From the UHGV virus genome UHGV-2201310: DNA of 38,499 bases; one strand, written 5' to 3'. The notes under the pieces are model-generated. The model did not search any database. It was not told the origin of the DNA and worked only from the letters and a program-made list of their open reading frames with translations. Shown one piece after another: positions 1-38,499 of the stretch (position 1 is its first letter; each line of letters opens with the position of its first letter). Source of the stretch: a virus. A program made the position numbers and the translations under genes.

Positions 1-1254
1 ATGCTGGAACAAATGGGCATTGCCGCGAAGCAAGCCTCGTATAAATTAGCGCAACTCTCCAGCCGCGAAAAAAATCGTGTGCTGGAAAAAATCGCCGATG
101 AACTGGAAGCACAAAGCGAAAGCATCCTCAACGCTAACGCACAGGATGTTGCAGACGCGCGTGCCAATGGCCTTAGCGAAGCGATGCTTGACCGTCTGGC
201 ACTGACGCCCGCACGGCTGAAAGGCATTGCCGACGATGTGCGCCAGGTGTGCAATCTCGCCGATCCGGTGGGGCAGGTAATCGATGGCGGCGTACTGGAC
301 AGCGGCCTGCGTCTTGAGCGTCGTCGCGTACCGCTGGGGGTGATTGGTGTGATTTATGAAGCGCGCCCGAACGTGACGGTTGATGTTGCTTCCCTGTGCC
401 TGAAAACCGGTAACGCGGTGATCCTGCGCGGCGGCAAAGAAACCTGTCGCACTAACGCTGCAACGGTAGCGGTGATTCAGGACGCCCTGAAATCCTGCGG
501 CTTACCGGCGGGTGCCGTGCAGGCAATTGATAATCCTGACCGTGCGCTGGTCAGTGAAATGCTGCGTATGGATAAATACATCGACATGCTGATCCCGCGC
601 GGTGGGGCTGGTTTGCATAAACTGTGCCGCGAGCAGTCGACAATCCCGGTGATCACAGGCGGTATAGGCGTATGCCATATTTACGTTGATGAAAGCGCAG
701 AGATCGCTGAAGCCCTGAAAGTAATTGTCAACGCGAAAACTCAGCGTCCGAGCACGTGTAATACGGTAGAAACGTTGCTGGTGAATAAAAACATCGCTGA
801 TAGCTTCCTGCCCGCATTAAGCAAACAAATGGCGGAAAGCGGCGTGACGTTACACGCTGATGCAGCCGCGCTGGCGCAGTTGCAGGCAGGCCCCGCGAAG
901 GTGGTGGCTGTTAAAGCCGAAGAGTATGACGATGAGTTTCTGTCATTAGATTTGAACGTCAAAATCGTTAGCGATCTGGATGACGCCATTGCCCATATTC
1001 GTGAACACGGCACGCAACACTCCGATGCGATCCTGACCCGCGATATGCGCAACGCCCAGCGTTTTGTTAACGAAGTGGATTCCTCCGCTGTTTACGTTAA
1101 CGCCTCTACGCGTTTTACCGACGGCGGCCAGTTTGGACTGGGGGCGGAAGTGGCGGTAAGCACACAAAAACTCCACGCGCGCGGCCCAATGGGGCTGGAA
1201 GCACTGACCACTTACAAGTGGATCGGCATTGGTGATTACACCATTCGTGCGTAA
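1..1254 (+). CDS. proA: gamma-glutamyl phosphate reductase (complete, 417 aa)
   Basis: Full-length ORF starting at base 1; translation matches E. coli ProA essentially along its whole length from memory. Confidence 0.95.
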
Positions 1255-1368: not shown

Positions 1369-1444
1369 GCCGATATAGCTCAGTTGGTAGAGCAGCGCAT
1401 TCGTAATGCGAAGGTCGTAGGTTCGACTCCTATTATCGGCACCA
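1369..1444 (+). tRNA. thrW: tRNA-Thr (anticodon CGT)
   Basis: 76-nt sequence GCCGATATAGCTCAGTTGGTAGAGC...GGTTCGACTCCTATTATCGGCACCA with cloverleaf arms, CGT anticodon loop and CCA end; thrW lies next to proA in E. coli. Confidence 0.9.
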
Positions 1445-1458: not shown

Positions 1459-2619
1459 TTACCTCGCATTTAAGTAAACCACGTTCTCCTCTTGTGCCGT
1501 ATTTGTGCCATTGCGACTTATAATCGCATCGATTTTGCTCGCGTGCTCGGTGAGATGCCCGGCTGAAAGGTGGGCGTATCTTTGAACCATTTCGAGAGTT
1601 TCCCATCCTCCCATCTCTTTAAGTGCAAGAAGAGAGACACCGGACTGAACCAGCCAGCTTGCCCAGGTATGCCTCAGGTCATGGAAGCGGAAGTTGCTAA
1701 TGCCTGCCCGCTTTAACGCTCCCTTCCATGCCTTGTTGCTGTCGGTTCTCATCTTCCTTACCGCTGCTGTTTTTGTTCCGTCGCTTCGGTAGGCAGGTTT
1801 GGTGTGGACAAACACCCATCTCTTATGGAGACCCTGCTGTTTTCTTAATATCTGGCATGCGGTTTCGTTAAGAGGAACTCCGATCGCATTGCCAGCTTTT
1901 GTTTCATCAGGGTGCATCCATGCCATTTTCTTATCCAGATCGACCTGTGACCACTCAAGGTCTGTAACGTTGGAACGGCGAAGGCCTGTCGTGATTGCAA
2001 ACATGACCACAGGGAAGAAATGAGGAGCAATTTCTGCAAACAGGCGCTTCGATTCCTCCTCTGTAAGCCATCTGATTCGTCCATTCTTAACGCGTGGTGT
2101 TGATATTTTGGGCGCCCTGTCAAGCCATCCCCATTCAACAGCCATATTGAGAATAGCGCGAAGTATTGCCAGATGCCGCGTCTTCGTTCCTTTGCTTGCC
2201 AGCTTTGGTTTATACTCCGGCACTGGCTTGCCAAGCCGCAAACACCTGTCCCGGCTCATTTCCCAGTTCAGGCGATGGCGGCGGTTTTCCATCCCGTCTA
2301 CCGCCTCCATTATTTTTTCTGTTGTTATGTCTGAGAGAATGGTTTCTCTGAAGTGCAACATCCAGAACGATATAATGCTCTTGTCATCATCAATGGACTT
2401 CTTATCCGATTTCTCACGCAGCCACCGTATGCAGGCTTCCTTGAATAGCTTTTTCGGTGATTCCCCGAGATTTTTTACTCTCCACGCTTCTGCTTTTAGA
2501 CGATCGTGAAGTTCTTGCGCTTGCCTTTTGTCCGATGTTTCAAGAGAGCGTCTAACTCTTGATCCATCTGGCGCGACGAAATCGCAGTGCCACGTGCCAC
2601 CGCGTAGTTTGATTGACAT
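1459..2619 (-). CDS. int: tyrosine integrase (P22 Int-like)
   Basis: 386 aa; C-terminal HDLRHTWASWLVQ...GGWE..EMV.RYAHL catalytic motifs; strong AGGAGG RBS before ATG at 2619. Confidence 0.93.
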   Translation of the reverse strand: MSIKLRGGTWHCDFVAPDGSRVRRSLETSDKRQAQELHDRLKAEAWRVKNLGESPKKLFKEACIRWLREKSDKKSIDDDKSIISFWMLHFRETILSDITTEKIMEAVDGMENRRHRLNWEMSRDRCLRLGKPVPEYKPKLASKGTKTRHLAILRAILNMAVEWGWLDRAPKISTPRVKNGRIRWLTEEESKRLFAEIAPHFFPVVMFAITTGLRRSNVTDLEWSQVDLDKKMAWMHPDETKAGNAIGVPLNETACQILRKQQGLHKRWVFVHTKPAYRSDGTKTAAVRKMRTDSNKAWKGALKRAGISNFRFHDLRHTWASWLVQSGVSLLALKEMGGWETLEMVQRYAHLSAGHLTEHASKIDAIISRNGTNTAQEENVVYLNAR

Positions 2620-2943: not shown

Positions 2944-3288
2944 TTAGTCCTTGCGTAGCTCGCTGATTCTTCTGTAAGTCTCTGGTGCTTTGTTTCCGTG
3001 TATCTTCATTTCCGACTTCAACAGAGCAACGAGGGAATCCCATTCGTTGAGGATTCCTTTGAATGCCGGAACGCGCTTTGCAACCTTGTCGAATGAAGCT
3101 CTGATTTCTGGAATCTGCTCAACAAGTGCAACGCATCGCCGGAAGTCTGCTGCGTCATGTGGAGCGCCGAAGTGATGACCATAGATATTCTTTTTCAGTC
3201 CACATGCGATTGAGGCAAGAGTTGCGCTACTGATGCCGACATCGCCAGTCGATTGCCATTTCAAAACCTTCATAGCCAAATCTGACAT
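2944..3288 (-). CDS. hypothetical protein (early-left accessory)
   Basis: ORF with GGAG RBS before ATG at 3288 (MSDLAMKV...); the longer track ORF start at 3315 lies inside a terminator hairpin. Confidence 0.5.
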   Translation of the reverse strand: MSDLAMKVLKWQSTGDVGISSATLASIACGLKKNIYGHHFGAPHDAADFRRCVALVEQIPEIRASFDKVAKRVPAFKGILNEWDSLVALLKSEMKIHGNKAPETYRRISELRKD

Positions 3289-3300
3289 TTCTTGTCTCCA

Positions 3301-3325
3301 ATAAAAAACCGCCATCAGGCGGCTT
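3301..3325 (-). terminator. rho-independent terminator (leftward operon)
   Basis: Minus-strand hairpin CCGCC-TGAT-GGCGG followed by TTTTTTATT. Confidence 0.4.
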
Positions 3326-3482
3326 GGTGTTCTTTCAGTTCTTCAATTCGAATATTGGTTACGTCTGCATGTGCTATCTGCGCCCATATCATCCAGTGGT
3401 CATAGCAGTCATTGATGTTCTCTGCTTCGATAACTCTGTTGAATGGCTCTCCATTCCATTCACCTGTCACCCGGAAGTGCAT
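3315..3482 (-). CDS. hypothetical small protein (55 aa)
   Basis: Short ORF MHFRVTGEWNGEPF... below the track length cutoff; stop falls in the terminator loop. Confidence 0.3.
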   Translation of the reverse strand: MHFRVTGEWNGEPFNRVIEAENINDCYDHWMIWAQIAHADVTNIRIEELKEHQAA

Positions 3483-3554
3483 TTATCATCTCCATAAAAC
3501 AAAACTCGCCGTAGCGAGTTCAGATAAAAGAAATCCCCGCAAATGCGAGGATTG

Positions 3555-3839
3555 TTATTCATTGCCGATATTCACCTTTATCGCGAACACTTTTACCGGT
3601 TTATCACCGAAGTGGGGATGTGTGATTGTCTTGATTTCATATCCGTCATACGGGACGTTAATTCTGCGGCTGGAGTCGTCGCGCTTCGGATATCCCCTTG
3701 TGATAATCAGGCGGTCATACTCCCGGAACATAATTCGCTTATTCCAGTAGTCATTATACAGGCGATACTCTTCCGTTTTCTCGCCTGACTTCATCTGGTC
3801 GAAATATTCACCGTTAACTGCCAGTTGAAGGTTAGCCAC
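3555..3839 (-). CDS. ASCH (PUA-like) domain protein
   Basis: 94 aa; N-terminal L.L.V....F..M.SG.KT.E.R pattern and C-terminal beta-strand region resemble ASCH/YqfB-type domains; GTG start. Confidence 0.55.
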   Translation of the reverse strand: MANLQLAVNGEYFDQMKSGEKTEEYRLYNDYWNKRIMFREYDRLIITRGYPKRDDSSRRINVPYDGYEIKTITHPHFGDKPVKVFAIKVNIGNE

Positions 3840-9271: not shown

Positions 9272-9604
9272 TCAATCGTAATAAGCTGGAATTGATTTTC
9301 CGCGTTGCTTCTGGCGGCCTGAGCAAGTCACACCCATTTCACTGCGTGGCTTGCTGTACCATGTGCGCTGATTCTTGCGCTCAATACGTTGCAGGTTGCT
9401 TTCAATCTGTTCGTGGTATTCAGCCAGCACCGTAAGGTCTATCGGATTCAGTGCGCTTTCTACTCGTGATTTCGGTTTGCGATTCAGCGAGAGAATAGGG
9501 CGGTTAACTGGTTTTGCGCTTACCCCAACCAACAGGGGATTTGCTGCTTTCCATTGAGCCTGTTTCTCTGCGCGACGTTCGCGGCGGCGTGTTTGTGCAT
9601 CCAT
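9272..9604 (-). CDS. N: antitermination protein N (lambda-type)
   Basis: MDAQTRRRERRAEKQAQWKAANPLLVGVSAKPVNRPILSLNRKPKSRVESALNPIDLTVLAEYH... near-identical to lambda N including the Arg-rich boxB-binding motif. Confidence 0.9.
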   Translation of the reverse strand: MDAQTRRRERRAEKQAQWKAANPLLVGVSAKPVNRPILSLNRKPKSRVESALNPIDLTVLAEYHEQIESNLQRIERKNQRTWYSKPRSEMGVTCSGRQKQRGKSIPAYYD

Positions 9605-9776: not shown

Positions 9777-9807
9777 GCCCTTCTTCAGGGCTAAATTTTT
9801 AAGAGCC
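9777..9807 (-). promoter_or_regulatory. nutL (boxA + boxB)
   Basis: Minus-strand GGCTCTTAAAAATTTA followed by GCCCTGAAGAAGGGC, matching lambda nutL boxB exactly. Confidence 0.8.
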
Positions 9808-9846
9808 TCACCTTCATGGTGGTTAGTGCGTCCTGCTGATGGCTAA

Positions 9847-9875
9847 ATAGTACGATTTGTACTTTATCGAGTCAA
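9847..9875 (-). promoter_or_regulatory. pL promoter with overlapping palindromic candidate operator
   Basis: Minus strand TTGACT-17 bp-TACTAT; perfect palindrome AGTACGATTTGTACT (9849-9863) overlaps the -10/spacer. Confidence 0.5.
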
Positions 9876-9939
9876 TACAAAATGTTCTAAATATAATTAG
9901 TTTTTTATAACGCTTTGTATTTAATGGGTTTATATTTTG

Positions 9940-9967
9940 GAAAAAGAAACCCGACGCTAAGGTCGGG
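9940..9967 (-). terminator. terminator downstream of cI
   Basis: Minus-strand hairpin CCCGACC-TTAGCG-TCGGG followed by TTTCTTTTT; corresponding lambda region is similar. Confidence 0.5.
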
Positions 9968-9999
9968 TTATTGTTGTGTGTTTTAGAGTGGTGAGGCTG

Positions 10000-10659
10000 T
10001 TAACTAAATGTCTCTTCAGGCCACTGGCTGGCGATAACTTTCCCTACTACGGAACAGCTATCATTGCATGGAATCATTGGATATTGCGGGTTTAGTGGCT
10101 GTAGGAACACCTGACCGCTATCCCTGATCAGTTTCTTGAAGGTAAACTCGTCACCACCAAGTCTGGCTATGCAGAAATCACCTGGCTCAACAGCCTGCTC
10201 AGGGTCAACGAGAATTAACATCCCGTCAGGAAAGCTTGGCTTGGATCCTGTTGGAGCGGTCATGGAATTACCTTCAACTTCAAGCCAAAACGCACAATCA
10301 CTGGCTTTTTTGGTTGTGCTGACCCATCTCTCCGCATCACCTTTGGTAAAGGTTCTAAGCTCAGGCGAGAACATCCCGGCCTGAACATGAGAAAAAACAG
10401 GGTACTCATATTGTTTTTTAACGGGGGCAGATGAGTATTCGCCAACAGGTGAAAATGTACCGTCGTGGTTGAATGAGACGTTATCAATACCAAGGTATTT
10501 AAACACCACACCAATCTCGTCAAGAGATGGATGACGAGATCCGCGCAACCAGTGACCAATTCCACCCTGCGTCATACCAAGCTCTTCAGCTAACTTCTCT
10601 TGAGTTATGCCGAGCTCTTTCATTCTGGATCTAGCCAGTTCATACCATTTCATTTTCAT
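10000..10659 (-). CDS. cI: CI-type prophage repressor (lambda-like C-terminal domain, heterologous N-terminal HTH)
   Basis: C-terminal two-thirds ([22 protein letters not shown]...[13 protein letters not shown]) is near-identical to lambda CI incl. Ala-Gly cleavage site and Ser/Lys dyad region; N-terminal ~70 aa is an unrelated XRE-type HTH. Start at MKMKWYEL chosen (alternative 10653). Confidence 0.85.
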
Positions 10660-10715
10660 ACCCTTATTATTACGCTCTGTACTAAAACCATCCATGCACA
10701 AGATGTATTTTTTGT

Positions 10716-10744
10716 TTGCATTCTAAAAGTACATATCGTATTAT
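10716..10744 (+). promoter_or_regulatory. pR promoter (operator region OR lies within 10660-10770)
   Basis: TTGCAT-17 bp-TATTAT, 26 bp upstream of cro ATG. Confidence 0.5.
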
Positions 10745-10770
10745 TGTTTCATGGTTACTATGGAGGGCAT

Positions 10771-10986
10771 ATGAGCAACCTACGAAAATATCGAGAGTCA
10801 CTGAATATCTCTCAAACAACACTTGCTAAGGCGGTTGGATGCACACAGGGAGCTATTGGGCATTGGGAATCTGGTCGTCGCTTCCCAGACCTTAAAACAT
10901 GCCGCGCTCTTGTTGCATGCCTAAACAAGTTAGGCGCAAAAGTCAGTCTTGATGACGTGTTCCCTCCGGAACACAAAGCCGCTTAA
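10771..10986 (+). CDS. cro: Cro-like HTH repressor
   Basis: 71 aa XRE-type HTH protein with GGAGGG RBS, divergent from cI. Confidence 0.8.
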   Translation: MSNLRKYRESLNISQTTLAKAVGCTQGAIGHWESGRRFPDLKTCRALVACLNKLGAKVSLDDVFPPEHKAA

Positions 10987-10994
10987 GACATTCC

Positions 10995-11026
10995 CGCTCT
11001 TACACATTCCAGCCCTGAAAAAGGGC
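10995..11026 (+). promoter_or_regulatory. nutR (boxA + boxB)
   Basis: CGCTCTTACACATTCCA followed by GCCCTGAAAAAGGGC, identical to lambda nutR. Confidence 0.85.
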
Positions 11027-11105
11027 ATCAAATTAAACCACACCTATGGTGTATGCATTTATTTGCATACATTCGATCAATTGTTATCTAAGGAAATACT
11101 TACAT

Positions 11106-11384
11106 ATGCAACTTACAAGTACTCGCAAGAAAGCGAATGCAATTACAAGCAACATCCTGAATCGAATTGCTGTACGTGGTCAGCGAAAGGTTGCCGACGC
11201 GTTAGGGATTAATGAATCGCAAATTTCGCGATGGAAAGACAGCTTCATCCCAAAAATGGGAATGCTTCTGGCTGTTCTTGAATGGGGTGTTGAAGACGAG
11301 GAGTTGGCGGAACTGGCTAAGAAAGTAGCCAGAATGCTGACAAAAGAAAAAGCCCCGAAGAACGGCGAATTCTTCGAGGCCTGA
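11106..11384 (+). CDS. cII: CII transcriptional activator
   Basis: 92 aa; ...[22 protein letters not shown]...A.LA..VA..LT... matches lambda CII core. Confidence 0.8.
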
Positions 11385-11418
11385 TGTAGAAAGACTGGAT
11401 CAATCCACAGGAGTAATT

Positions 11419-11565
11419 ATGACAAAACAACTCAGTCCTTACCAGGACAAAATTCACAAACACATACTACGTGATCGCTTCCTGTCCAGCTTCAAGCAGC
11501 CTGGTCGATTCCGGGCTGAGTTGGAAAAAGTGAAGCTGATGCAGAAGGAGAAAGGTCATGAGTAA
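11419..11565 (+). CDS. hypothetical small protein (48 aa)
   Basis: [21 protein letters not shown]...; AGGAG-like RBS; 3' end overlaps O start. Confidence 0.3.
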
Positions 11566-12418
11566 TCTTGCAACCGTAACACATTTAAGGCCTTCACAAC
11601 GGCCTGTGGAGCGTCGTGTGGCAGAAGTTGAAGATGGTTATACCCGTCTTGCAAATGCCCTGTATGAAGAGCTTATCGGCGCAGATTTAACGAAAAATCA
11701 GAGCAAGGTTGCCCACGCCATATGCCGTAAAACATACGGCTACGGTAAAAAGATGGATCGCATCTCTGATAGTCAGTTAGCTCAAATTACCAGGCTGCCA
11801 AGACAGAAGGTAAACAAGGCCAAGAATGAGCTTATCGCGATGAAGGTTATCCTTCGCGAAGGCCAGCAAATCGGGCCTAACAAGAACATCGAGGAATGGC
11901 AAATCGAAGGGTGTCACTACTCTGGTGATAATGTCACTGCATTGGTGACAAAAAGTGTCACCAAAACGGTGACAGCGCTGTCACCAAAACAGGGACACAC
12001 AAAAGAAACTATTACAAAAGAAAAAAGAAATAATAAAAACACTATGTCCGAAAGTGTTCGGACGGAGTGTGAAAAATCACCTGACCGTCACGAAGAAACC
12101 GACAAGGCATTCGAGGAAATATTCTGGTGTGCAGGCATGCGGAAAGCCGGGAAGAAAAACGCAGCTTCGGCATTCAGAACACAGTTCAGGGAATGGCGTA
12201 AAACTACCAGGGGTACGGCAAGCGAGTTTGCCACGATGCTGGCAGAAGACATCGCATGCAGGAATGGTAAGCAGTTCGGATTCGACAGGTTGTTACCATC
12301 GAGCTACCTGAACGGTCAGCGCTGGAACGACGAGAAGCCAGAAACTATTCAACCACAATCCAAACCATCATCCGCAATCACCGTATCGAAAACTGGCTAC
12401 GTATTTTTCGACAGGTGA
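11558..12418 (+). CDS. O: replication initiator (lambda O-like)
   Basis: 286 aa; position after cII; iteron-type repeats embedded in coding sequence as in lambda O. Confidence 0.75.
11908..12050 (+). repeat. replication origin: GTGACA/TGTCAC iterons plus AT-rich tract
   Basis: Repeats TGTCACtactctGGTGAtaaTGTCACtgcattgGTGACAaaaaGTGTCACCAAAACgGTGACAgcgcTGTCACCAAAAC followed by A-rich stretch. Confidence 0.6.
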
Positions 12419-12421
12419 ACC

Positions 12422-12529
12422 ATGAAATCAAAAATCAAATCGCTACTGGTCGCTGGTTATAACCACGGCTGGTTAAGTATTTCGTTTGTCGATTTCTGGT
12501 TTAAAAATCTCAATCTGAGGGAATCATGA
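12422..12529 (+). CDS. possible tiny ORF (35 aa) coupled between O and primase-helicase
   Basis: ATG overlapping O stop and TGA overlapping primase ATG; no strong RBS. Confidence 0.2.
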   Translation: MKSKIKSLLVAGYNHGWLSISFVDFWFKNLNLRES

Positions 12530-14406
12530 CTCCAAGTGAACTCAGTGACCTGCTTTGGGCGCAGGTTGACAGGGTGGCTCCGCACCTGTTGCCAAACGGC
12601 AAGAAAGAGGGGCATGAGTGGGTTGCCGGTAACGTCAACGGTGACAAGGGAAACAGCCTTAAGGTCAACCTTAGCGGCAAGAAAAAATGGGCTGATTTCG
12701 CTGAGGGAGACGGCGGTGACATGCTTGATTTGTGGATGGCATGTCGTGGAATTAACCTGCATCAGGCTATGCAGGAAGCGAAAGCCTTTCTCGGAATCAA
12801 GGATGACGATCACCATTTCGATGCCAAACGTGAGAAGAAATTCTCCAGACCTGACCGCAAGAAAATCGCCCGCTACGTTACCAGAACAGAATCCCATCTT
12901 GAGTACCTGCAATCGCGTGGCATATCGCCAGAAGTCGTAAAGCGCTACGAGGTTGTCAGCGGCAAGGTGTGGAATGGAGAACGAGAACTTGATGCACTGG
13001 TGCTTCCGTACAAACGCGATGGTGAGTTGTTGCAGGTCAAGCGAATCAGCACTGAGCGACCGGACGGGAAGAAAGTCATTATGGCAGAAGGTGATTGCGA
13101 ACCTTGTCTGTTCGGATGGCAGGCTCTGGACGCTGGCGTGAGGGCGGTTGTACTTTGCGAAGGCGAAATTGATTGTATGAGCTATGCGCAATACGGCATC
13201 TCGGCGTTATCCGTGCCGTTTGGTGGCGGGAAAGGCGCTAAGCAACAGTGGATTGAGTTTGAGTATCACAACCTCGACAGGTTTGAGGAAATATTCATCT
13301 CGATGGATGTTGATGATGTTGGTCGTGAAGCTGCAAGGGAAATCGCAAGCCGACTCGGTGAACATCGTTGCCGTCTTGTTACTCTGCCGTACAAAGACAT
13401 CAACGAATGCCTGATGAACGGTGTTACCGAGGATGAAATCTGGCAGTACATCGGCACGGCATCCTACTTCGATCCTGAAGAACTCTACAGCGCGCGAGAG
13501 TTTTACCAGGACACTATCAACGCTTTCTACGGCAAGCAGCAGTATCTGTTTAATCCACCGTGGGAATCTCTGGCAGATAAATTCCAGTTCCGTGAGGCCG
13601 AGTTGACGCTGGTCAATGGTGTGAACGGTCACGGAAAAACGGAGGTTGTCGGGCATATGGCACTTGAGGCAATGCGTCAGGGTGTGAAGACGTGCATCGC
13701 GTCACTTGAGCTGAAGCCAGGCATTCTCCTTAAGCGACTTACCCGTCAGGCGACGTGCTGCAAGATGCCGCCAGTGCTGGAAATTGACTCTGCATTTAAA
13801 TTTTATGACGAAAGACTTTGGGTGTTTGGCCTGACCGGAACGGCGAAAGCCGACAGGCTGATCGAAATATTCGACTACGCTCGCCGCCGATACGGCATCC
13901 AGTTATTCATCATCGACAGCCTGATGAAATGTGGCATAGGCGACGATGACTATAACGGGCAGAAGGCGTTTGTTGACTCGATTTGCGACTTCAAAAACAA
14001 AACAAACTCCCACGTCATTCTCGTTACTCACTCGCGAAAAGGAGACAGCGAAGAAAAACCAACCGGGAAAATGGACGTAAAAGGCTCTGGAGCGATAACA
14101 GACCTGACAGACAACCTTTTCATCATCTGGCGTAACAAGGCTCGCGAGAGAGCGTTACAGAGAGTTCAGAGTGGTGAAAAGATGTCAGAGAAGGACGAAC
14201 AGCTACTGGCATCTCCGGCATCTGTTTTGATGCTTGAAAAGCAACGTAACGGCGAAAGTTGGGAAGGTGGTGTCCCGTTGTTCCTTGACGAGCAATCGCA
14301 CCAGTTCCTGCAACTTGAATCAGGATCGCCATATAGCTACATCGCCAATATGCCGAAATCGGAATATGACGAGGCGTGGCGACAGGAAAACGTGACGGAG
14401 TATTAA
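12526..14406 (+). CDS. bifunctional primase-helicase (DnaB-family helicase domain)
   Basis: 626 aa; C-terminal Walker A GVNGHGKT and Walker B-like FIIDSL motifs; N-terminal half Toprim-like (VVLCEGEIDCMS..., ISMDVDDVG). Confidence 0.8.
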   Translation: MTPSELSDLLWAQVDRVAPHLLPNGKKEGHEWVAGNVNGDKGNSLKVNLSGKKKWADFAEGDGGDMLDLWMACRGINLHQAMQEAKAFLGIKDDDHHFDAKREKKFSRPDRKKIARYVTRTESHLEYLQSRGISPEVVKRYEVVSGKVWNGERELDALVLPYKRDGELLQVKRISTERPDGKKVIMAEGDCEPCLFGWQALDAGVRAVVLCEGEIDCMSYAQYGISALSVPFGGGKGAKQQWIEFEYHNLDRFEEIFISMDVDDVGREAAREIASRLGEHRCRLVTLPYKDINECLMNGVTEDEIWQYIGTASYFDPEELYSAREFYQDTINAFYGKQQYLFNPPWESLADKFQFREAELTLVNGVNGHGKTEVVGHMALEAMRQGVKTCIASLELKPGILLKRLTRQATCCKMPPVLEIDSAFKFYDERLWVFGLTGTAKADRLIEIFDYARRRYGIQLFIIDSLMKCGIGDDDYNGQKAFVDSICDFKNKTNSHVILVTHSRKGDSEEKPTGKMDVKGSGAITDLTDNLFIIWRNKARERALQRVQSGEKMSEKDEQLLASPASVLMLEKQRNGESWEGGVPLFLDEQSHQFLQLESGSPYSYIANMPKSEYDEAWRQENVTEY

Positions 14407-17248: not shown

Positions 17249-17891
17249 TGGCAGCAAATACCGAAATATTTGGGTAGTTGGCGATCTGCACGGATGCTAC
17301 ACGAACCTGATGAAAAAACTGGAGACGATAGGATTCGACACCAAAAAAGACCTGCTTATCTCGGTTGGCGATTTGGTCGATCGCGGTACAGAGAACGTCG
17401 AATGCCTGGAATTAATCACATTCCCCTGGTTCAGAGTTGTACGTGGAAACCATGAGCAAATGATGATTGATGGCTTATCAGAGCGTGGAAACGTCAATCA
17501 CTGGCTGCTTAATGGCGGTGGCTGGTTCTTTAATCTCGATTACGACAAAGAAATTCTGGCTAAAGCTCTTGCCCATAAAGCAGATGAACTTCCGTTAATC
17601 ATCGAACTGGTGAGCAAAGATAAAAAATATATCATCTGCCACGCCGATTATCCTTGTGACGAATACGAGTTTGGAAGGCCAGTTGATCATCAGCAGGTAA
17701 TCTGGAACCGCGAACGAATCAGCAACTCACAAGACGGGATCGTGAAAGAAATCAAAGGCGCGGACATGTTCATCTTTGGTCATACGCCCGCAGTGAAACC
17801 ACTCAAATTTGCCAACCAGATGTATATCGATACTGGGGCAGTGTTCTGCGGAAATCTCACATTGATTCAGGTACAGGGAGAAGGCGCATGA
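17226..17891 (+). CDS. ninI: Ser/Thr protein phosphatase (NinI, lambda PPase-like)
   Basis: GDLHG, GDLVDRG, GNHE metallophosphatase motifs. Confidence 0.85.
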
Positions 17892-18511
17892 GACTCGAAA
17901 GCGTAGCTAAATTTCATTCGCCAAAAAGCCCGATGATGAGCGACTCACCACGGGCTACGGCTTCTGACTCTCTTTCCGGTACTGATGTGATGGCTGCTAT
18001 GGGGATGGCGCAATCACAAGCCGGATTCGGTATGGCTGCATTCTGTGGTAAGCACGAACTCAGCCAGAATGACAAACAAAAGGCTATCAACTATCTGATG
18101 CAATTTGCACACAAGGTATCGGGGAAATACCGTGGTGTGGCAAAGCTCGAAGGAAATACTAAGGCAAAGGTACTGCAAGTGCTCGCAACATTCGCTTATG
18201 CGGATTATTGCCGTAGTGCCGCGACGCCGGGCGCAAGATGCAGAGATTGCCACGGTACAGGCCGTGCGGTTGATATAGCCAAAACAGAGCAGTGGGGGAG
18301 AGTTGTCGAGAAAGAGTGCGGAAGATGCAAAGGCGTCGGCTATTCAAGGATGCCAGCAAGCGCCGCATATCGCGCTGTAACGATGCTAATCCCAAACCTT
18401 ACTCAACCCACCTGGTCACGCACTGTTAAGCCGCTGTATGACGCTCTGGTGGTGCAATGCCACAAGGAAGAGTCAATCGCAGACAACATTTTGAATGCGG
18501 TCACACGTTAG
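17888..18511 (+). CDS. Q: late antiterminator Q (lambda-type)
   Basis: 207 aa, essentially identical to lambda Q along its length from memory. Confidence 0.9.
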
Positions 18512-33257: not shown

Positions 33258-35371
33258 TGGCCTATAGTCGTGAACAGTTGATGACGGCGTTAAGGAATGC
33301 TGATGCTGCCGGCGATACTGAGGGAGCACGTCGCATTGCTCAGATGCTGTCTTCTGGTGATCAATCCACTCAAAACCAATCGCAGCCAGAAGAACAATCT
33401 CTGGTAGGAAAAGCCACTGACTGGCTCACTGGTGGTCAAAGCGCAGGGCAAATTGCAGAACAGGCTGGCCGTGGTCTGGTAAACATACCATTTGACGTGT
33501 TACAGGGTGGTGCAAGCCTGATTAATGCAATCAGTCAGGGGCTTGGTGGTCCCAAGGTTTTGGATGATGTCTATCGTCCAGTCGATCGACCGACAGACCC
33601 TTACGCGCAAGTCGGTGAAACAATTGGTGGGTATCTCCTGCCAATTGGCACAGCGGCAAAAGCTGCTGGAGCGCCAGCAAAGCTCGCTGGAGATATCGGT
33701 TCCGCAGGAAACATGATTGCAGGTTCTCTTGCTGATGCTGCAAATCAGGAGGGAGACTTTGCACAAAATGCTGCCATTAACGGTGGTATCAATATTGGTG
33801 CTCAAGGCGTTCTTTCAGGTGTCGGGCGCGTTATTGCGCCAAGGGTTTCACAGGCTCTTGGTGGTGCAGCACTGAATTCTGCTAATGATGTTTCCAGGAT
33901 GGCAAAGTCAGGTGCTGGGCGTCAGTCAATTGCCAGTCAGGCCGCTAATGTGTCCGAAGATGTAGCAAAAGCGGCTGAGTCTGCTGGAATTGATATAAAC
34001 GCATTAACACCAGGAATGCGATCTGGAAGTCGTGGAATTGCACAAGCCGAAGGCGCATTGGCATCAACACCAGGAATTGTTCAGGACGCCCATCAGGCAG
34101 CATTTGACGAAATATCATCAAAGTTAAGTCGAAACCTTGATGAATTTGGGGCCGCATCTGGAACGGCATCAGAAAAAAGTGCGGCTATAAAACAAAGGAT
34201 TCTTCAAAATCTTGATCAGATGAAGGATGCCGAGCGCGCGGCATGGGATGACGTGCGGTCAACGATGCCAAATCAAAAAGCAAGAATGCTAAATGGTAAT
34301 GCCGTTATTCAGGCAGAGCGATCTGCTGGCATACCGCTTACTCCTGAAATGAAACAGTTTGTTCAGGCAAACAATCAAGGTGGAGTAACATTTGATGGCA
34401 TGAAAGCATGGAGAGCGAAATTTGCTGATGCGGAGCAAAAATATAAGCGTAGCGGAGAGGCAAATGCGGCAAGGAGAGCAGGGGAAATACGCCGGGCAAT
34501 TACTGATGATATGCGCACAATGGCGGAAAACGGCGGATTTCTTGATGACTGGCAGAAAGCTAATGATCTGTCTAAAGCGAGGTTATCAGCACAAGAGAGT
34601 GCAGAGTCTGTTTTCGGGCGTGATTTGGCAACAGATACACTGATTACGAATGGAGTAAAATCCCTTCAATCATCGTCAGCTAAAGGTCTTAATGGTCCTG
34701 CTGGGTTCCATTCTATGATCCGCGCGCTGCCAGAATCAGAGCGTGTTCCTGCTATATCATCAATGTTGCAAGATGCTATCTCGCATGGTGTACGTGGTGG
34801 CAAAGCTGATGCAGCAGGAATTAACCATATCGCAGAGATACTCACTCCACAAAATGTAAAAGCCATTAGCCGATATTCCTCAGAGCTTGGAAGAATTGCA
34901 GATGCATATGGCACTCTTGCAAGAGCAGCAGTGAAACCTCAGCAGTATATTGAAAGAACAGGGCGAACTGCCAATGTACTACGCGATCTGGATGCTGGTT
35001 TATCCAACGTTACATCAACAGTGTTAAATGCAATTGCCAATTCAACATCAGGTGCCATTGTTGGTGGAGCAGGAGGAGGGGGCGTTGCTGGCGCTGCCGC
35101 TGGCGCTTTAGTTGGCGCAGGGTTAAAAGGCGCTGTATCTAAAATTGCCACCACACGTAGTGGTCGGTATGCGATAGAGAAAGCCGTTCAGGAAGCCACT
35201 AAAGCAGTAAGAACCGGCGGAAGCAAAGAAGCATTAGCTGCGGCGGAACGCAGATTTATGGCAAATAAGGCCGCTGTAAAAGCGATACGTGATACAGTCG
35301 GAAACGAAGAGTTTCAGCGATTAGCGAGGGCTGGGATTGTGGCATCGCTAAGCGGAATGGCACAGGAGTAA
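33257..35371 (+). CDS. ejection protein (P22 gp16-like)
   Basis: 704 aa, Ala/Gly-rich with C-terminal glycine-rich hydrophobic segment; conserved position. Confidence 0.7.
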
Positions 35372-35466
35372 TTAGTCGTCCACGGATGGATTGAGCTTAT
35401 CTCGTGCTTCACATTTGGTTGTTTTGTCATTAGGATGTTTCCGGTTTTTTAAATATGGAAATTGAT

Positions 35467-35757
35467 ATGAAGAGGATCATTGCGGTTGCTTGTTTTAATG
35501 TCTTTCTTTTATCTGGTTGTGCAACATCTTCTAAAACATACGCCCCTGATGGTAGAGAAGCATACACTATTGATTGCTCAGGTCTGGGGGGATCATGGGG
35601 GATGTGCCTAACTAAGGCTGGCGATTTGTGTGGAAGCAAAGGATATGATGTACTGACATCAGCTGGAGATAAAGGATTTATAGCATCAGCAAACCCCGAA
35701 ATGGCGTTTGCAGGCAATACCATCTCAAGGAATTTACTCATCGCTTGTAAAAAGTGA
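35467..35757 (+). CDS. small Cys-rich lipoprotein (cargo)
   Basis: Signal peptide MKRIIAVACFNVFLLSGC with lipobox; mature ~80 aa with 4 further Cys; alternative start 35455. Confidence 0.6.
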   Translation: MKRIIAVACFNVFLLSGCATSSKTYAPDGREAYTIDCSGLGGSWGMCLTKAGDLCGSKGYDVLTSAGDKGFIASANPEMAFAGNTISRNLLIACKK

Positions 35758-36719: not shown

Positions 36720-37610
36720 ATGTCAAGCTTAGCAAAGTCAACTGTAAATTGCACTAATAGCATCATCATTTCTGACGTCAAGATTCATATGGATTCAGAG
36801 GGGCGTTACTCGCTTAATGACCTTCATGTAGCGTCTGGGAAGGAGGAAAAACATCAGCCAGCTTTCTTCATGCGTAGAAATGAAACTATTGAATTGATTA
36901 ATGAAATTTTTAATTCTGCGGATATGCAGAATAAGAATCCCGTCCTTTCTAAGAAAGGTCGATATGGTGGAACCTACGTGTGCAAGGAGCTTGTTTACTC
37001 CTACGCCATGTGGATTAGCGCAGCCTTTGCGCTGAAGGTTATCCGTGCATATGACGCAATGGTTACTGCCACACAAGAGAGGAAGGCTATTGGAGGTAAA
37101 ACTTCAGTAGCTGAACGCACACCGCTACGAGATGCAGTAAACATGCTGGTAGGAAAGAAAGGACTTCGCTATGACGATGCATACAATATGGTTCATCAGC
37201 GTTTTGGTATTGACAGCATTGATGAACTTTCAATTGAACAAATTCCGCTGGCCGTAGAGTACATCCACAGGGTAGTGCTTGAAGGTGAATTCATCGGCAA
37301 ACAAGAGAAGAAAACCAGCGAGCTTTCTGCAAAAGAAGCAAACAGCCTTGTATGGTTATGGGATTATGCCAACCGCTCACAGGCATTATTCCGCGAACTG
37401 TATCCGGCATTAAAACAAATTCAATCGAACTATTCCGGCAGATGCTACGACTACGGTCATGAGTTCTCGTATGTTATCGGAATGGCGAGGGACGTTTTAA
37501 TCAATCACACACGAGATGTTGATATCAATGAGCCAGAAGGACCAACGAATCTTTCCGCATGGATGAGACTTAAGAATAAAGAATTACCTCCTTCAGTACA
37601 TAACTACTGA
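36720..37610 (+). CDS. ant: antirepressor Ant (KilA-N domain)
   Basis: 296 aa; N-terminal KilA-N-like region; downstream of arc as in P22 immI. Confidence 0.8.
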
Positions 37611-37627
37611 CAGATAACCAACGCAAC

Positions 37628-37651
37628 GACCCAGCTTCGGCTGGGTTTTTT
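37628..37651 (+). terminator. rho-independent terminator after ant
   Basis: Hairpin ACCCAGC-TTCG-GCTGGGT followed by TTTTTTT. Confidence 0.6.
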
Positions 37652-37710: not shown

Positions 37711-38499
37711 ATGACAGACATTACAGCCAATGTTGTGGTAAGCATGCCTTCGCAACTCTTCACTATGGCGCGTTCTTTTAAAGCCGTAGCTAATGGCAAA
37801 ATTTATATCGGTAAAATTGACACTGACCCTGTAAATCCTGAAAACCAGATTCAAGTTTATGTAGAGAACGAAGATGGTTCTCACGTTCCTGTTTCGCAAC
37901 CAATCATCATTAACGCTGCTGGATATCCGGTATATAACGGGCAGATTGCCAAATTCGTAACTGTGCAAGGCCATTCTATGGCTGTATATGATGCATATGG
38001 CACTCAGCAGTTTTATTTTCCAAATGTATTAAAATACGATCCTGATCAACTTAGGACAGAGATTTTTTCTGACCGTATGCTGTTAATTACGCCACAGCAT
38101 TATGGGGCGAAAGGTGACGGTGTTAACGATGATACGGCGGCATTTATTGCAGCGGCAAATGCTATTGGAGAGGGTGGAAAACTATATGTGCCAACTGGAA
38201 CATATAGTTTGACTGGCCCCGTTAATATACCACCAGTAAATATGTGCGGTGATGGGCAGGGTGAAACGGTTATTGTGTTTGACAATACCACATCACCAAA
38301 AGACGGCTTTGTTTTCGCCGCACCAACTAAATATGATATTGAATTTGGTTTAAGTCACCTTACAGTTAAAACAAAAGGTGGGAATGGAGATAATGCCATA
38401 TATACCCCAAGAGGTGTCGGGCTTAATCATCTAAGGCCAAAACCAACATTTAGATTTTTATCTTTCTGTTCTGAGACTGCAAATATTGATTCTGATGAA
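37711..38499 (+). CDS. tailspike protein, 5'-partial (P22-type head-binding domain + beta-helix depolymerase domain)
   Basis: [40 protein letters not shown]... is the conserved P22-family tailspike N-terminus; after ~110 aa switches to [15 protein letters not shown] pectate-lyase-like motif; ORF open to window end. Confidence 0.85.

Follow-up and report, generated by a model that had tools for sequence, protein, structure and literature searches.

Among the closest known relatives of the repressor locus considered here are those of Stx phages, VT2-Sakai included. As summarised in PMC10742460, Fattah et al. (2000) found the C-terminus of VT2-Sakai CI to be lambda-like and its N-terminus dissimilar; according to that summary they also reported cross-immunity between VT2-Sakai and lambda, ascribed to residual similarity of the recognition helices. 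VT2-Sakai is treated as having six 17-bp operators, and lambda CI binds them with an apparent Kd of 3.7-6.4 uM, as against 0.2-0.35 uM on lambda OR1/OL1 (PMC10742460). Among the repressors of Stx phages, the VT2-Sakai-type CI belongs to clade I, the clade nearest to lambda CI, with 61% overall identity (PMC8951638).

We analysed a stretch of 38,499 nucleotides of a virus genome (UHGV-2201310), the whole of which is called the window below. Its immunity module (OL/pL, cI, OR/pRM/pR, cro) is very probably of the known VT2-Sakai / Stx1-converting-phage / Stx2-II type, of clade I, carried by a lambdoid P22-like prophage. The hybrid CI and its operators are already known: databases have contained them since 1999-2003, and they were described in 2000.

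Layout of the immunity module and its setting

The longest ORF of the cI-type repressor gene lies at 10000-10701 on the minus strand and reads 233 aa from a TTG. To the left of cI come a terminator hairpin, a pL-like promoter, nutL and the N gene; to the right, a pR-like promoter, cro, nutR, cII and then a non-lambda replication module (Table 1). The interval from the cI stop to OL3, where the hairpin lies, contains neither rexAB nor any other gene. The early region of the prophage is about 97% identical to those of mEp043, vB_EcoP-720R6 (a Lederbergvirus) and Sf101.

Table 1. Coordinates, in the window, of the features of the immunity region and of its surroundings
Feature	Position	Strand	Sequence or parts	Remarks
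tRNA-Thr(CGT)	1369-1444			adjoins the prophage
integrase	1459-2619			prophage gene beside tRNA-Thr(CGT)
N antiterminator, lambda-type	9272-9604	-	start MDAQTRRRERR	Pfam N36, E 1.6e-26
nutL	9777-9807	-	boxA GGCTCTTA (9800-9807), spacer, boxB GCCCTGAAGAAGGGC (9777-9791)	boxB as in lambda
pL	9847-9875	-	TTGACT, 17 bp, TACTAT	promoter scan; overlaps OL1/OL2
OL1	9848-9864		TAGTACGATTTGTACTT	contains AGTACGATTTGTACT; 20.6 bits, best in window; 1 mismatch to Stx1-phage site; exact in Dewey
OL2	9873-9889		CAATACAAAATGTTCTA	overlaps pL -35; 16.5 bits; 2 mismatches to Stx1-phage site
OL3	9906-9922		TATAACGCTTTGTATTT	15.1 bits; 1 mismatch to Stx1-phage site
bidirectional terminator-like hairpin	9948-9969			between cI stop and OL3; terminator scan, both strands
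cI 3' part: cleavage-site region and S24 catalytic/oligomerisation domain, lambda-type	10000-10410	-		Peptidase_S24; lambda identity
cI 5' part: VT2-Sakai-type HTH DNA-binding domain and proximal linker	10411-10659	-		HTH_3
OR3	10668-10684		TATTACGCTCTGTACTA	15.1 bits; 1 mismatch to Stx1-phage site
OR2	10694-10710		ATGCACAAGATGTATTT	11.2 bits, sixth best in window; 2 central mismatches to Stx1-phage site
pR	10715-10744	+	TTTGCA, 18 bp, TATTAT (or TTGCAT, 17 bp, TATTAT)	promoter scan; overlaps OR1
OR1	10727-10743		AAGTACATATCGTATTA	in pR spacer and -10; 18.4 bits, second best in window
cro	10771-10986	+	71 aa	all-alpha HTH_3 type, not lambda Cro; HTH_3 E 4.2e-12
nutR	10995-11026	+	boxA CGCTCTTA (10995-11002), boxB GCCCTGAAAAAGGGC (11012-11026)	boxA, spacer and boxB identical to lambda
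cII	11106-11384	+		Phage_CII E 1.8e-42 (Pfam); 46/92 identical to lambda CII
Q late antiterminator, lambda-type	17888-18511	+		206/207 identical to lambda Q

On the left side, DNA homology to lambda ends at 9841, immediately downstream of pL; on the right side it restarts at 10993, directly past the cro stop. Breaks by pL and just past cro are the classical boundaries of imm substitutions. Between them, 9842-10005 and 10411-10992 displayed no DNA homology in the comparison with lambda. Lambda-like patches of 87-99% identity are found in the prophage at N/nutL, nutR, nin-Q and lysis.

The original prediction held N, Q and the nut sites to be lambda-like, and this is confirmed for each of them. 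The N gene is 87% identical at the DNA level to lambda 35104-35583, and its product equals lambda N for about residues 1-80, including MDAQTRRRERRAEKQAQW, before diverging at the C-terminus. The nin region around Q has 96.8% DNA identity to lambda, and positions 10993-11108, which include nutR, are 99.1% identical to lambda 38247-38362. That the nut sites are strictly identical to those of lambda holds for nutR only: nutL, with the same boxB, carries one mismatch in boxA (GGCTCTTA instead of CGCTCTTA) and one change in the spacer. With boxA and boxB in the nut sites and an arginine-rich motif in N, the region has the features of lambda-type N/nut antitermination.

The true start of cI is probably ATG 10659 (219 aa) or ATG 10653 (217 aa). 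The longer forms, 233 aa from TTG 10701 or 231 aa from ATG 10695, are judged unlikely because OR3 and OR2 would fall inside the extension—ATG 10695 itself lies within OR2—and because homologues from other genera begin MKxxWYEL or MKWYEL. A 5' extension of cI is used in some GenBank records. For annotation, the analysis fixes the immunity type, places six operators together with pL and pR, and indicates that the 231- or 233-aa start is probably wrong.

DNA-binding domain, operators and immunity type

Megablast of positions 9780-11400 against GenBank phages returned 175 records. Dewey (PQ850600), Louie, vB_EcoP-720R6, vB_EcoP-683R2 and phi458 show 98.3-98.8% DNA identity over the module, and Nil2, the Stx1-converting phage (AP005153), Stx2 II, 2851 and the PA series (O157 Stx2 phages) reach 92.4% over cI and cro; a protein query with the CI N-domain brought up VT2-Sakai, 1717 and YYZ-2008. 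The whole CI is 100% identical to that of Dewey and about 97% identical to that of the Stx1-converting phage. Its N-domain (83 aa) is 100% identical in phi458 and 720R6, and has 96.4% identity to the Stx1-converting phage, Stx2 II, 1717, YYZ-2008 and the PA phages, and 95.2% to VT2-Sakai. The differences from the Stx-phage allele concern 3 of the 83 residues (DE to SD, V to I). VT2-Sakai (AP000363) encodes the CI allele of the Stx1 phage except for an in-frame stop codon at the Gln of the recognition helix; this helix is identical in the aligned Stx1-phage allele and, but for that stop codon, in VT2-Sakai too. The next best phage relatives of the N-domain, P22-like cI of Salmonella, reach only 55%.

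Cro follows the same pattern, being identical to the Cro of the Stx1 phage at 71 of 71 residues and to that of Dewey at 70 of 71. As had been predicted, it is not of the lambda type: it is an HTH_3 protein sharing 18 of 60 residues with lambda Cro in a forced global alignment. It is paralogous to the N-domain of CI (BLASTP E 6e-13), and the recognition helices of the two differ very little, reading TQGAIGHW in Cro and TQGGIGHW in CI.

For the operators, a symmetrised matrix was built from the six annotated 17-bp "putative operators" of the Stx1-converting phage record, and the whole 38.5-kb window was scanned with it. The six best matches are three at pL and three at pR. Five of them score 15 bits or more; OR2, the sixth, is weak with 11.2 bits. 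Each differs from its Stx1-phage counterpart by one or two mismatches, the correspondence being one-to-one, and the Stx1-phage sites are present as exact copies in VT2-Sakai. In controls, mononucleotide shuffles of the window gave 0.13 matches at 15 bits or more, and random sequence with the composition and length of both intergenic regions, which are AT-rich, gave 0.04 matches at 11 bits or more. The symmetrised consensus of the six operators is AAGTACAAATTGTACTT.

Two candidate operators had been proposed from the sequence and both are real candidates: AGTACGATTTGTACT is contained in OL1, and the AGTAC-containing sequence of the pR spacer is OR1. Calling the former a perfect palindrome was incorrect. 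AGTACGATTTGTACT, at 9849-9863, consists of two inverted 5-bp arms that flank an asymmetric centre of 5 bp; alone it is not beyond chance, and it owes its significance to the operator matrix scan. When the pL and pR regions were searched for inverted repeats in general, the operators did not come out as such, their arms being just 5-6 bp. In the promoter scan, no convincing sigma-70 match was found for pRM on the minus strand between OR2 and OR3.

The DNA-binding domain with its recognition helix, Cro and the set of six operators thus all correspond to the VT2-Sakai / Stx2-II / Stx1-phage type. They do not correspond to imm-lambda, since the N-domain is alignable with that of lambda over 26 residues only and the operators are not of the TATCACCGCCAGTGGTA type.

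It could be argued that this specificity is not fully distinct from that of lambda, weak cross-binding or mixed dimers and oligomers leading to partial cross-immunity or interference. Several likenesses point in this direction. Identity with lambda CI is 12/26 across helix 2-turn-helix 3, and helix 3, the recognition helix (QGGIGHWLR), retains the equivalent of Gln44; both operator sets are made of 17-bp sites that read T-A at half-site positions 1-2 and A-C at 5-6; and the two proteins hardly differ in their C-terminal halves. In addition, Fattah et al., as cited in PMC10742460, saw cross-immunity between VT2-Sakai and lambda, and lambda CI does bind VT2-Sakai operators at the micromolar Kd given above (PMC10742460). 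These affinities are, however, 10-30 times weaker than those for lambda OR1/OL1 and close to the values for Stx2-I operators, pointing to near-non-specific binding. Besides, positions 3-4 and 7-8 of the half-site differ from lambda, and the difference at position 4 is accompanied by a Gly at the equivalent of Ser45. We regard such a cross-reaction as rather unlikely. Comparison of the helix-turn-helix and of the half-sites fits a specificity related to that of lambda but distinct from it.

The original prediction saw here a novel immunity specificity, and one may ask whether slight departures from the Stx-phage allele suffice to render the phage heteroimmune to every type characterised so far. 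The one or two bases by which each operator departs from the Stx1-phage site, and the three substitutions in the N-domain, would be the basis of such a change. But neither the recognition helix nor any other part of the HTH differs, Cro is identical throughout, and most operator changes affect central, usually non-contacted bases. Moreover the exact allele is already in GenBank, in phages Dewey, 720R6 and phi458, and the 90%-identity database cluster of this CI has 1686 member sequences. A new specificity is thus very unlikely, and the match to a known immunity type, which the original prediction had itself named as the outcome that would go against it, is essentially what we observe.

The preferred assignment, to the VT2-Sakai type, places the locus in a widespread group. 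Of 5426 complete E. coli genomes, 116 contain 80% or more of the 1.6-kb module, and a part of it, whatever its extent, is present in 1722. E. coli prophages commonly bear this immunity module, and the Stx phages, which are of medical importance, are among them.

Junction and origin of the hybrid repressor

CI is indeed, as predicted, a chimera relative to lambda. Pfam recognises an N-terminal HTH_3 domain (E 8.3e-11, residues 11-58 of the 219-aa form) and a C-terminal Peptidase_S24 (E 8.9e-29). The last 136 residues, which start at Y98 (YEYPVF...; Y101 of lambda as conventionally numbered), have 133 in common with lambda CI, and positions 10006-10410 have 93.6% DNA identity to lambda 37233-37637. 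Twenty-seven codons of this part differ from lambda, 24 by synonymous and 3 by non-synonymous changes; the codon scan, which covered 135 codons, accounts for 24 + 2 of them, and the third non-synonymous change is the terminal S/G taken from the protein alignment. The N-terminal part matches lambda only across the helix-turn-helix, at 46% identity. The existence of a different DNA-binding domain is thus established, the non-lambda part measuring 83-97 residues rather than the approximately 70 first proposed. The break in homology falls within the linker that joins the two domains, at lambda Y101, which precedes the Ala111-Gly112 cleavage site by ten residues, in agreement with the recombination at the domain boundary that had been put forward.

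Beyond the junction, the determinants of self-cleavage are those of lambda. The scissile Ala-Gly codons are at 10375-10380 (Ala at 10378-10380), within the same VQAG motif, and the Ser/Lys dyad is kept, with the Ser149 equivalent encoded at 10264-10266 and that of Lys192 at 10135-10137. An HTH, a Peptidase_S24 with its Ser/Lys dyad and an Ala-Gly bond in the linker are the features of the LexA/lambda-CI S24 family. Matches of the C-terminal part in the PDB include 3bdn (E 2e-96) and 2ho0 (CI 101-229; E 1e-83). The 2ho0 fragment begins at the junction residue. Identity to the self-cleaving lambda CI 101-229 fragment of entries 2ho0/2hnf is 98%, from which we infer that this CI would undergo RecA*-stimulated self-cleavage.

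How old is the hybrid? The C-terminal cI DNA of lambda, of the Stx phages and of the window are roughly equidistant, with a divergence of about 5-10% per 60-bp block that is almost all synonymous, and the same junction is found in all relatives, including phages sequenced since 1999. The 24 synonymous differences from lambda and this common junction indicate that the hybrid is not recent in this prophage. That the prophage recently took the C-terminal half of its cI directly from lambda, or the reverse, is hardly credible: it would be in line with the several other lambda-like patches of the prophage, but the cI patch is less similar to lambda than nutR (99%) and nin-Q, and the synonymous differences together with the three-way equidistance speak against such a transfer.

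Searching databases with the C-terminal 136 residues gave 351 proteins at E <=1e-20. Among 112 usable representatives, the lambda-family C-terminal module, taken at 60% identity or more, is borne by at least five N-terminal classes: the lambda type, the VT2-Sakai type, the MKTMHEIIGERIK type and two minor ones. For 44 of these representatives, the sequence closest by its C-terminal part belongs to another N-terminal class. C-terminal identity reaches 97-100% across classes and goes down to 54-57% within a class. Of nine cross-class pairs examined, eight break directly before the (Y/F)xYP(V/L)F motif, on its N-terminal side; the members of the remaining pair differ by an indel, so that the ungapped method did not place their junction. 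We conclude with high confidence that the hybrid stems from an exchange within the linker, immediately upstream of the conserved YEYPVF motif, and that this exchange is old and recurrent in the repressors of Enterobacterales, not specific to this prophage. Recurrent exchange at the linker agrees with what is known of mosaicism in lambdoid phages, and lambda with VT2-Sakai is one instance of such exchange.

The recurrent exchange of DNA-binding domains on a near-identical C-terminal module raises the possibility of repressor cross-talk in polylysogens, for example in O157:H7. Tentatively, and with more doubt than confidence, one could see the lambda-type C-terminal module as a shared "socket", joined repeatedly to unrelated DNA-binding domains at a single fixed place, just before (Y/F)xYP(V/L)F, with heteroimmune repressors being able to form mixed complexes. 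If this were true, co-resident heteroimmune prophages would often share near-identical oligomerisation domains; through mixed dimers, or mixed cooperative or looping complexes, prophages that are otherwise independent would become coupled in their stability and induction; and this coupling might show itself in interference or in partial cross-immunity of the kind claimed for lambda and VT2-Sakai.

Predicted regulation and relation to known systems

In the mechanism we propose, CI dimers would bind the six 17-bp operators via the N-terminal helix-turn-helix, with QGGIGHWLR as recognition helix; occupation of the three operators over pL and of the three over pR/pRM would turn lytic transcription off. 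Cro, with its near-identical recognition helix, would compete for the same sites. The lambda-type C-terminal two-thirds of CI (from Y101) would, by homology, ensure dimerisation, pairwise cooperativity and OL-OR looping, and, as in lambda, RecA*-stimulated self-cleavage on SOS induction. With lambda-type N/nutL/nutR and Q, early and late transcription would then proceed by antitermination. The identities between sequences, the domains, the places of the operators and of the junction, and the overlaps with promoters come directly from the present analysis; DNA binding, cooperativity, looping and RecA-dependent cleavage are transposed from lambda biology as what we infer this repressor would do, and lambda-style pairwise cooperativity at these operators is assumed. 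Unlike in lambda, where operators are spaced by 20-24 bp, the centre-to-centre spacing is 33 bp for OR1-OR2 and OL2-OL3, 25 bp for OL1-OL2 and 26 bp for OR2-OR3, and OL and OR are separated by 879 bp instead of about 2.4 kb; the details of cooperativity may therefore differ.

The Dewey group (Dewey, Louie, 720R6, 683R2, phi458) has exact copies of five of the six operators and other replication modules (in Dewey, an HNH endonuclease with O and DnaC-like genes); the Cro of Dewey departs at one residue. The Stx phages (VT2-Sakai, Stx1-converting, Stx2 II, Nil2, 2851, 1717, YYZ-2008, PA) share the domain fusion, the junction and the operator order, with about 7-8% DNA divergence from the module and 1-2 base changes per operator. 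The 1.5-kb insert (orf22/b63) between cI and OL is absent here, and the prophage that carries the module of the window is not an Stx phage: it is P22-like, and its N, nut and Q are of the lambda type.

With lambda itself, the locus has in common the 17-bp operators, the 3+3 architecture, the overlap with pL and pR, and the left and right imm boundaries. Residues 101-236 of lambda CI (NP_040628; PDB 3bdn, 2ho0, 1f39) are near-identical, including Ala111-Gly112, Ser149 and Lys192. The N-domain is, on the other hand, shorter than that of lambda and without N-terminal arm, nothing past the HTH region aligning; the operator sequences differ, rexAB is absent and Cro is of a different fold family. 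In 434 and P22 the repressor and Cro read the same sites. The arrangement of the window is like theirs, a Cro paralogous to the CI N-domain having a near-identical recognition helix.

In the classical hybrid-immunity phages and in engineered domain-swap repressors, too, DNA-binding specificity forms a module that can be separated from the C-terminal domain. Lambda imm434 and imm21 likewise carry a heterologous imm cassette whose limits lie at pL and immediately past cro, between lambda-like N/nut flanks. By contrast with these, the cassette described here is interrupted by a lambda-homologous patch, which is the C-terminal half of cI.

The C-terminal module of CI and its N-terminal partners

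Among the database relatives of the C-terminal 136 residues of CI (P0001-P0120), we found the lambda-family C-terminal module fused to N-terminal parts of at least five unrelated classes; for 44 of the 112 usable representatives the closest C-terminal neighbour belongs to another N-terminal class, with an identity of up to 100%. The break lies directly before the motif (Y/F)xYP(V/L)F in 8 of the 9 pairs examined, a position equivalent to 10410/10411 in the window. The closest solved structure to the Cro of the window (10771-10986) is PDB 28tn, entitled "lambda repressor-like protein" (E 4.5e-17, 69 residues aligned), which the N-terminal domain of CI also matches, weakly.

The annotated start of cI (10653-10701) differs among records, giving 231 residues in Escherichia phage Dewey and in the Stx1-converting phage, and 217 in Escherichia phage 720R6. 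Homologues from other genera support the short form as the probable product. As a separate observation, the cI of VT2-Sakai as deposited (AP000363, ~2965-3660 of the locus, + strand) carries an in-frame stop in its recognition helix (GMT*GGIG), at a position occupied by Gln in the Stx1-converting phage; its annotation is therefore restricted to a 510-nt 3' fragment.

Surroundings of the immunity region

Neither rexAB nor any other gene was found between the cI stop and OL3 (9922-10000). The boxA of nutR is canonical, unlike that of nutL. With the features at its left end (1-2619), the window looks like a prophage inserted at a tRNA-Thr gene.

Features of the window
Feature	Position	Strand	Remark
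Host-like ORF	1-1254		
tRNA-Thr(CGT)	1369-1444		
Integrase	1459-2619	minus	divergent
N, C-terminal divergent stretch	9272-9350	minus	PRSEMGVTCSGRQKQRGKSIPAYYD; lambda N, PGERGITCSGRQKIKGKSIPLI
nutL boxA	9800-9807	minus	GGCTCTTA; lambda, CGCTCTTA
Bidirectional hairpin	9948-9969		sole element between cI stop and OL3
ATG of 231-aa cI form	10695		inside OR2 (predicted operator)
48-aa ORF	11419-11565		precedes replication module
286-aa O-like initiator and 626-aa primase/helicase	11558-14406		replication module

Comparison with lambda and related phages

The early genes are ~97% identical to those of mEp043, vB_EcoP-720R6 and Sf101, and the replication module, which is not lambda O/P, has the same make-up as in mEp043 and 720R6. 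N is identical to that of lambda over its first ~80 residues whereas the last ~25 diverge. OL1 and OR1 are separated by 879 bp, against ~2.4 kb in lambda; at the cI-OL3 spot, an insert of 1.5 kb that includes a 173-aa ORF is present in Stx phages and in some prophages of E. coli.
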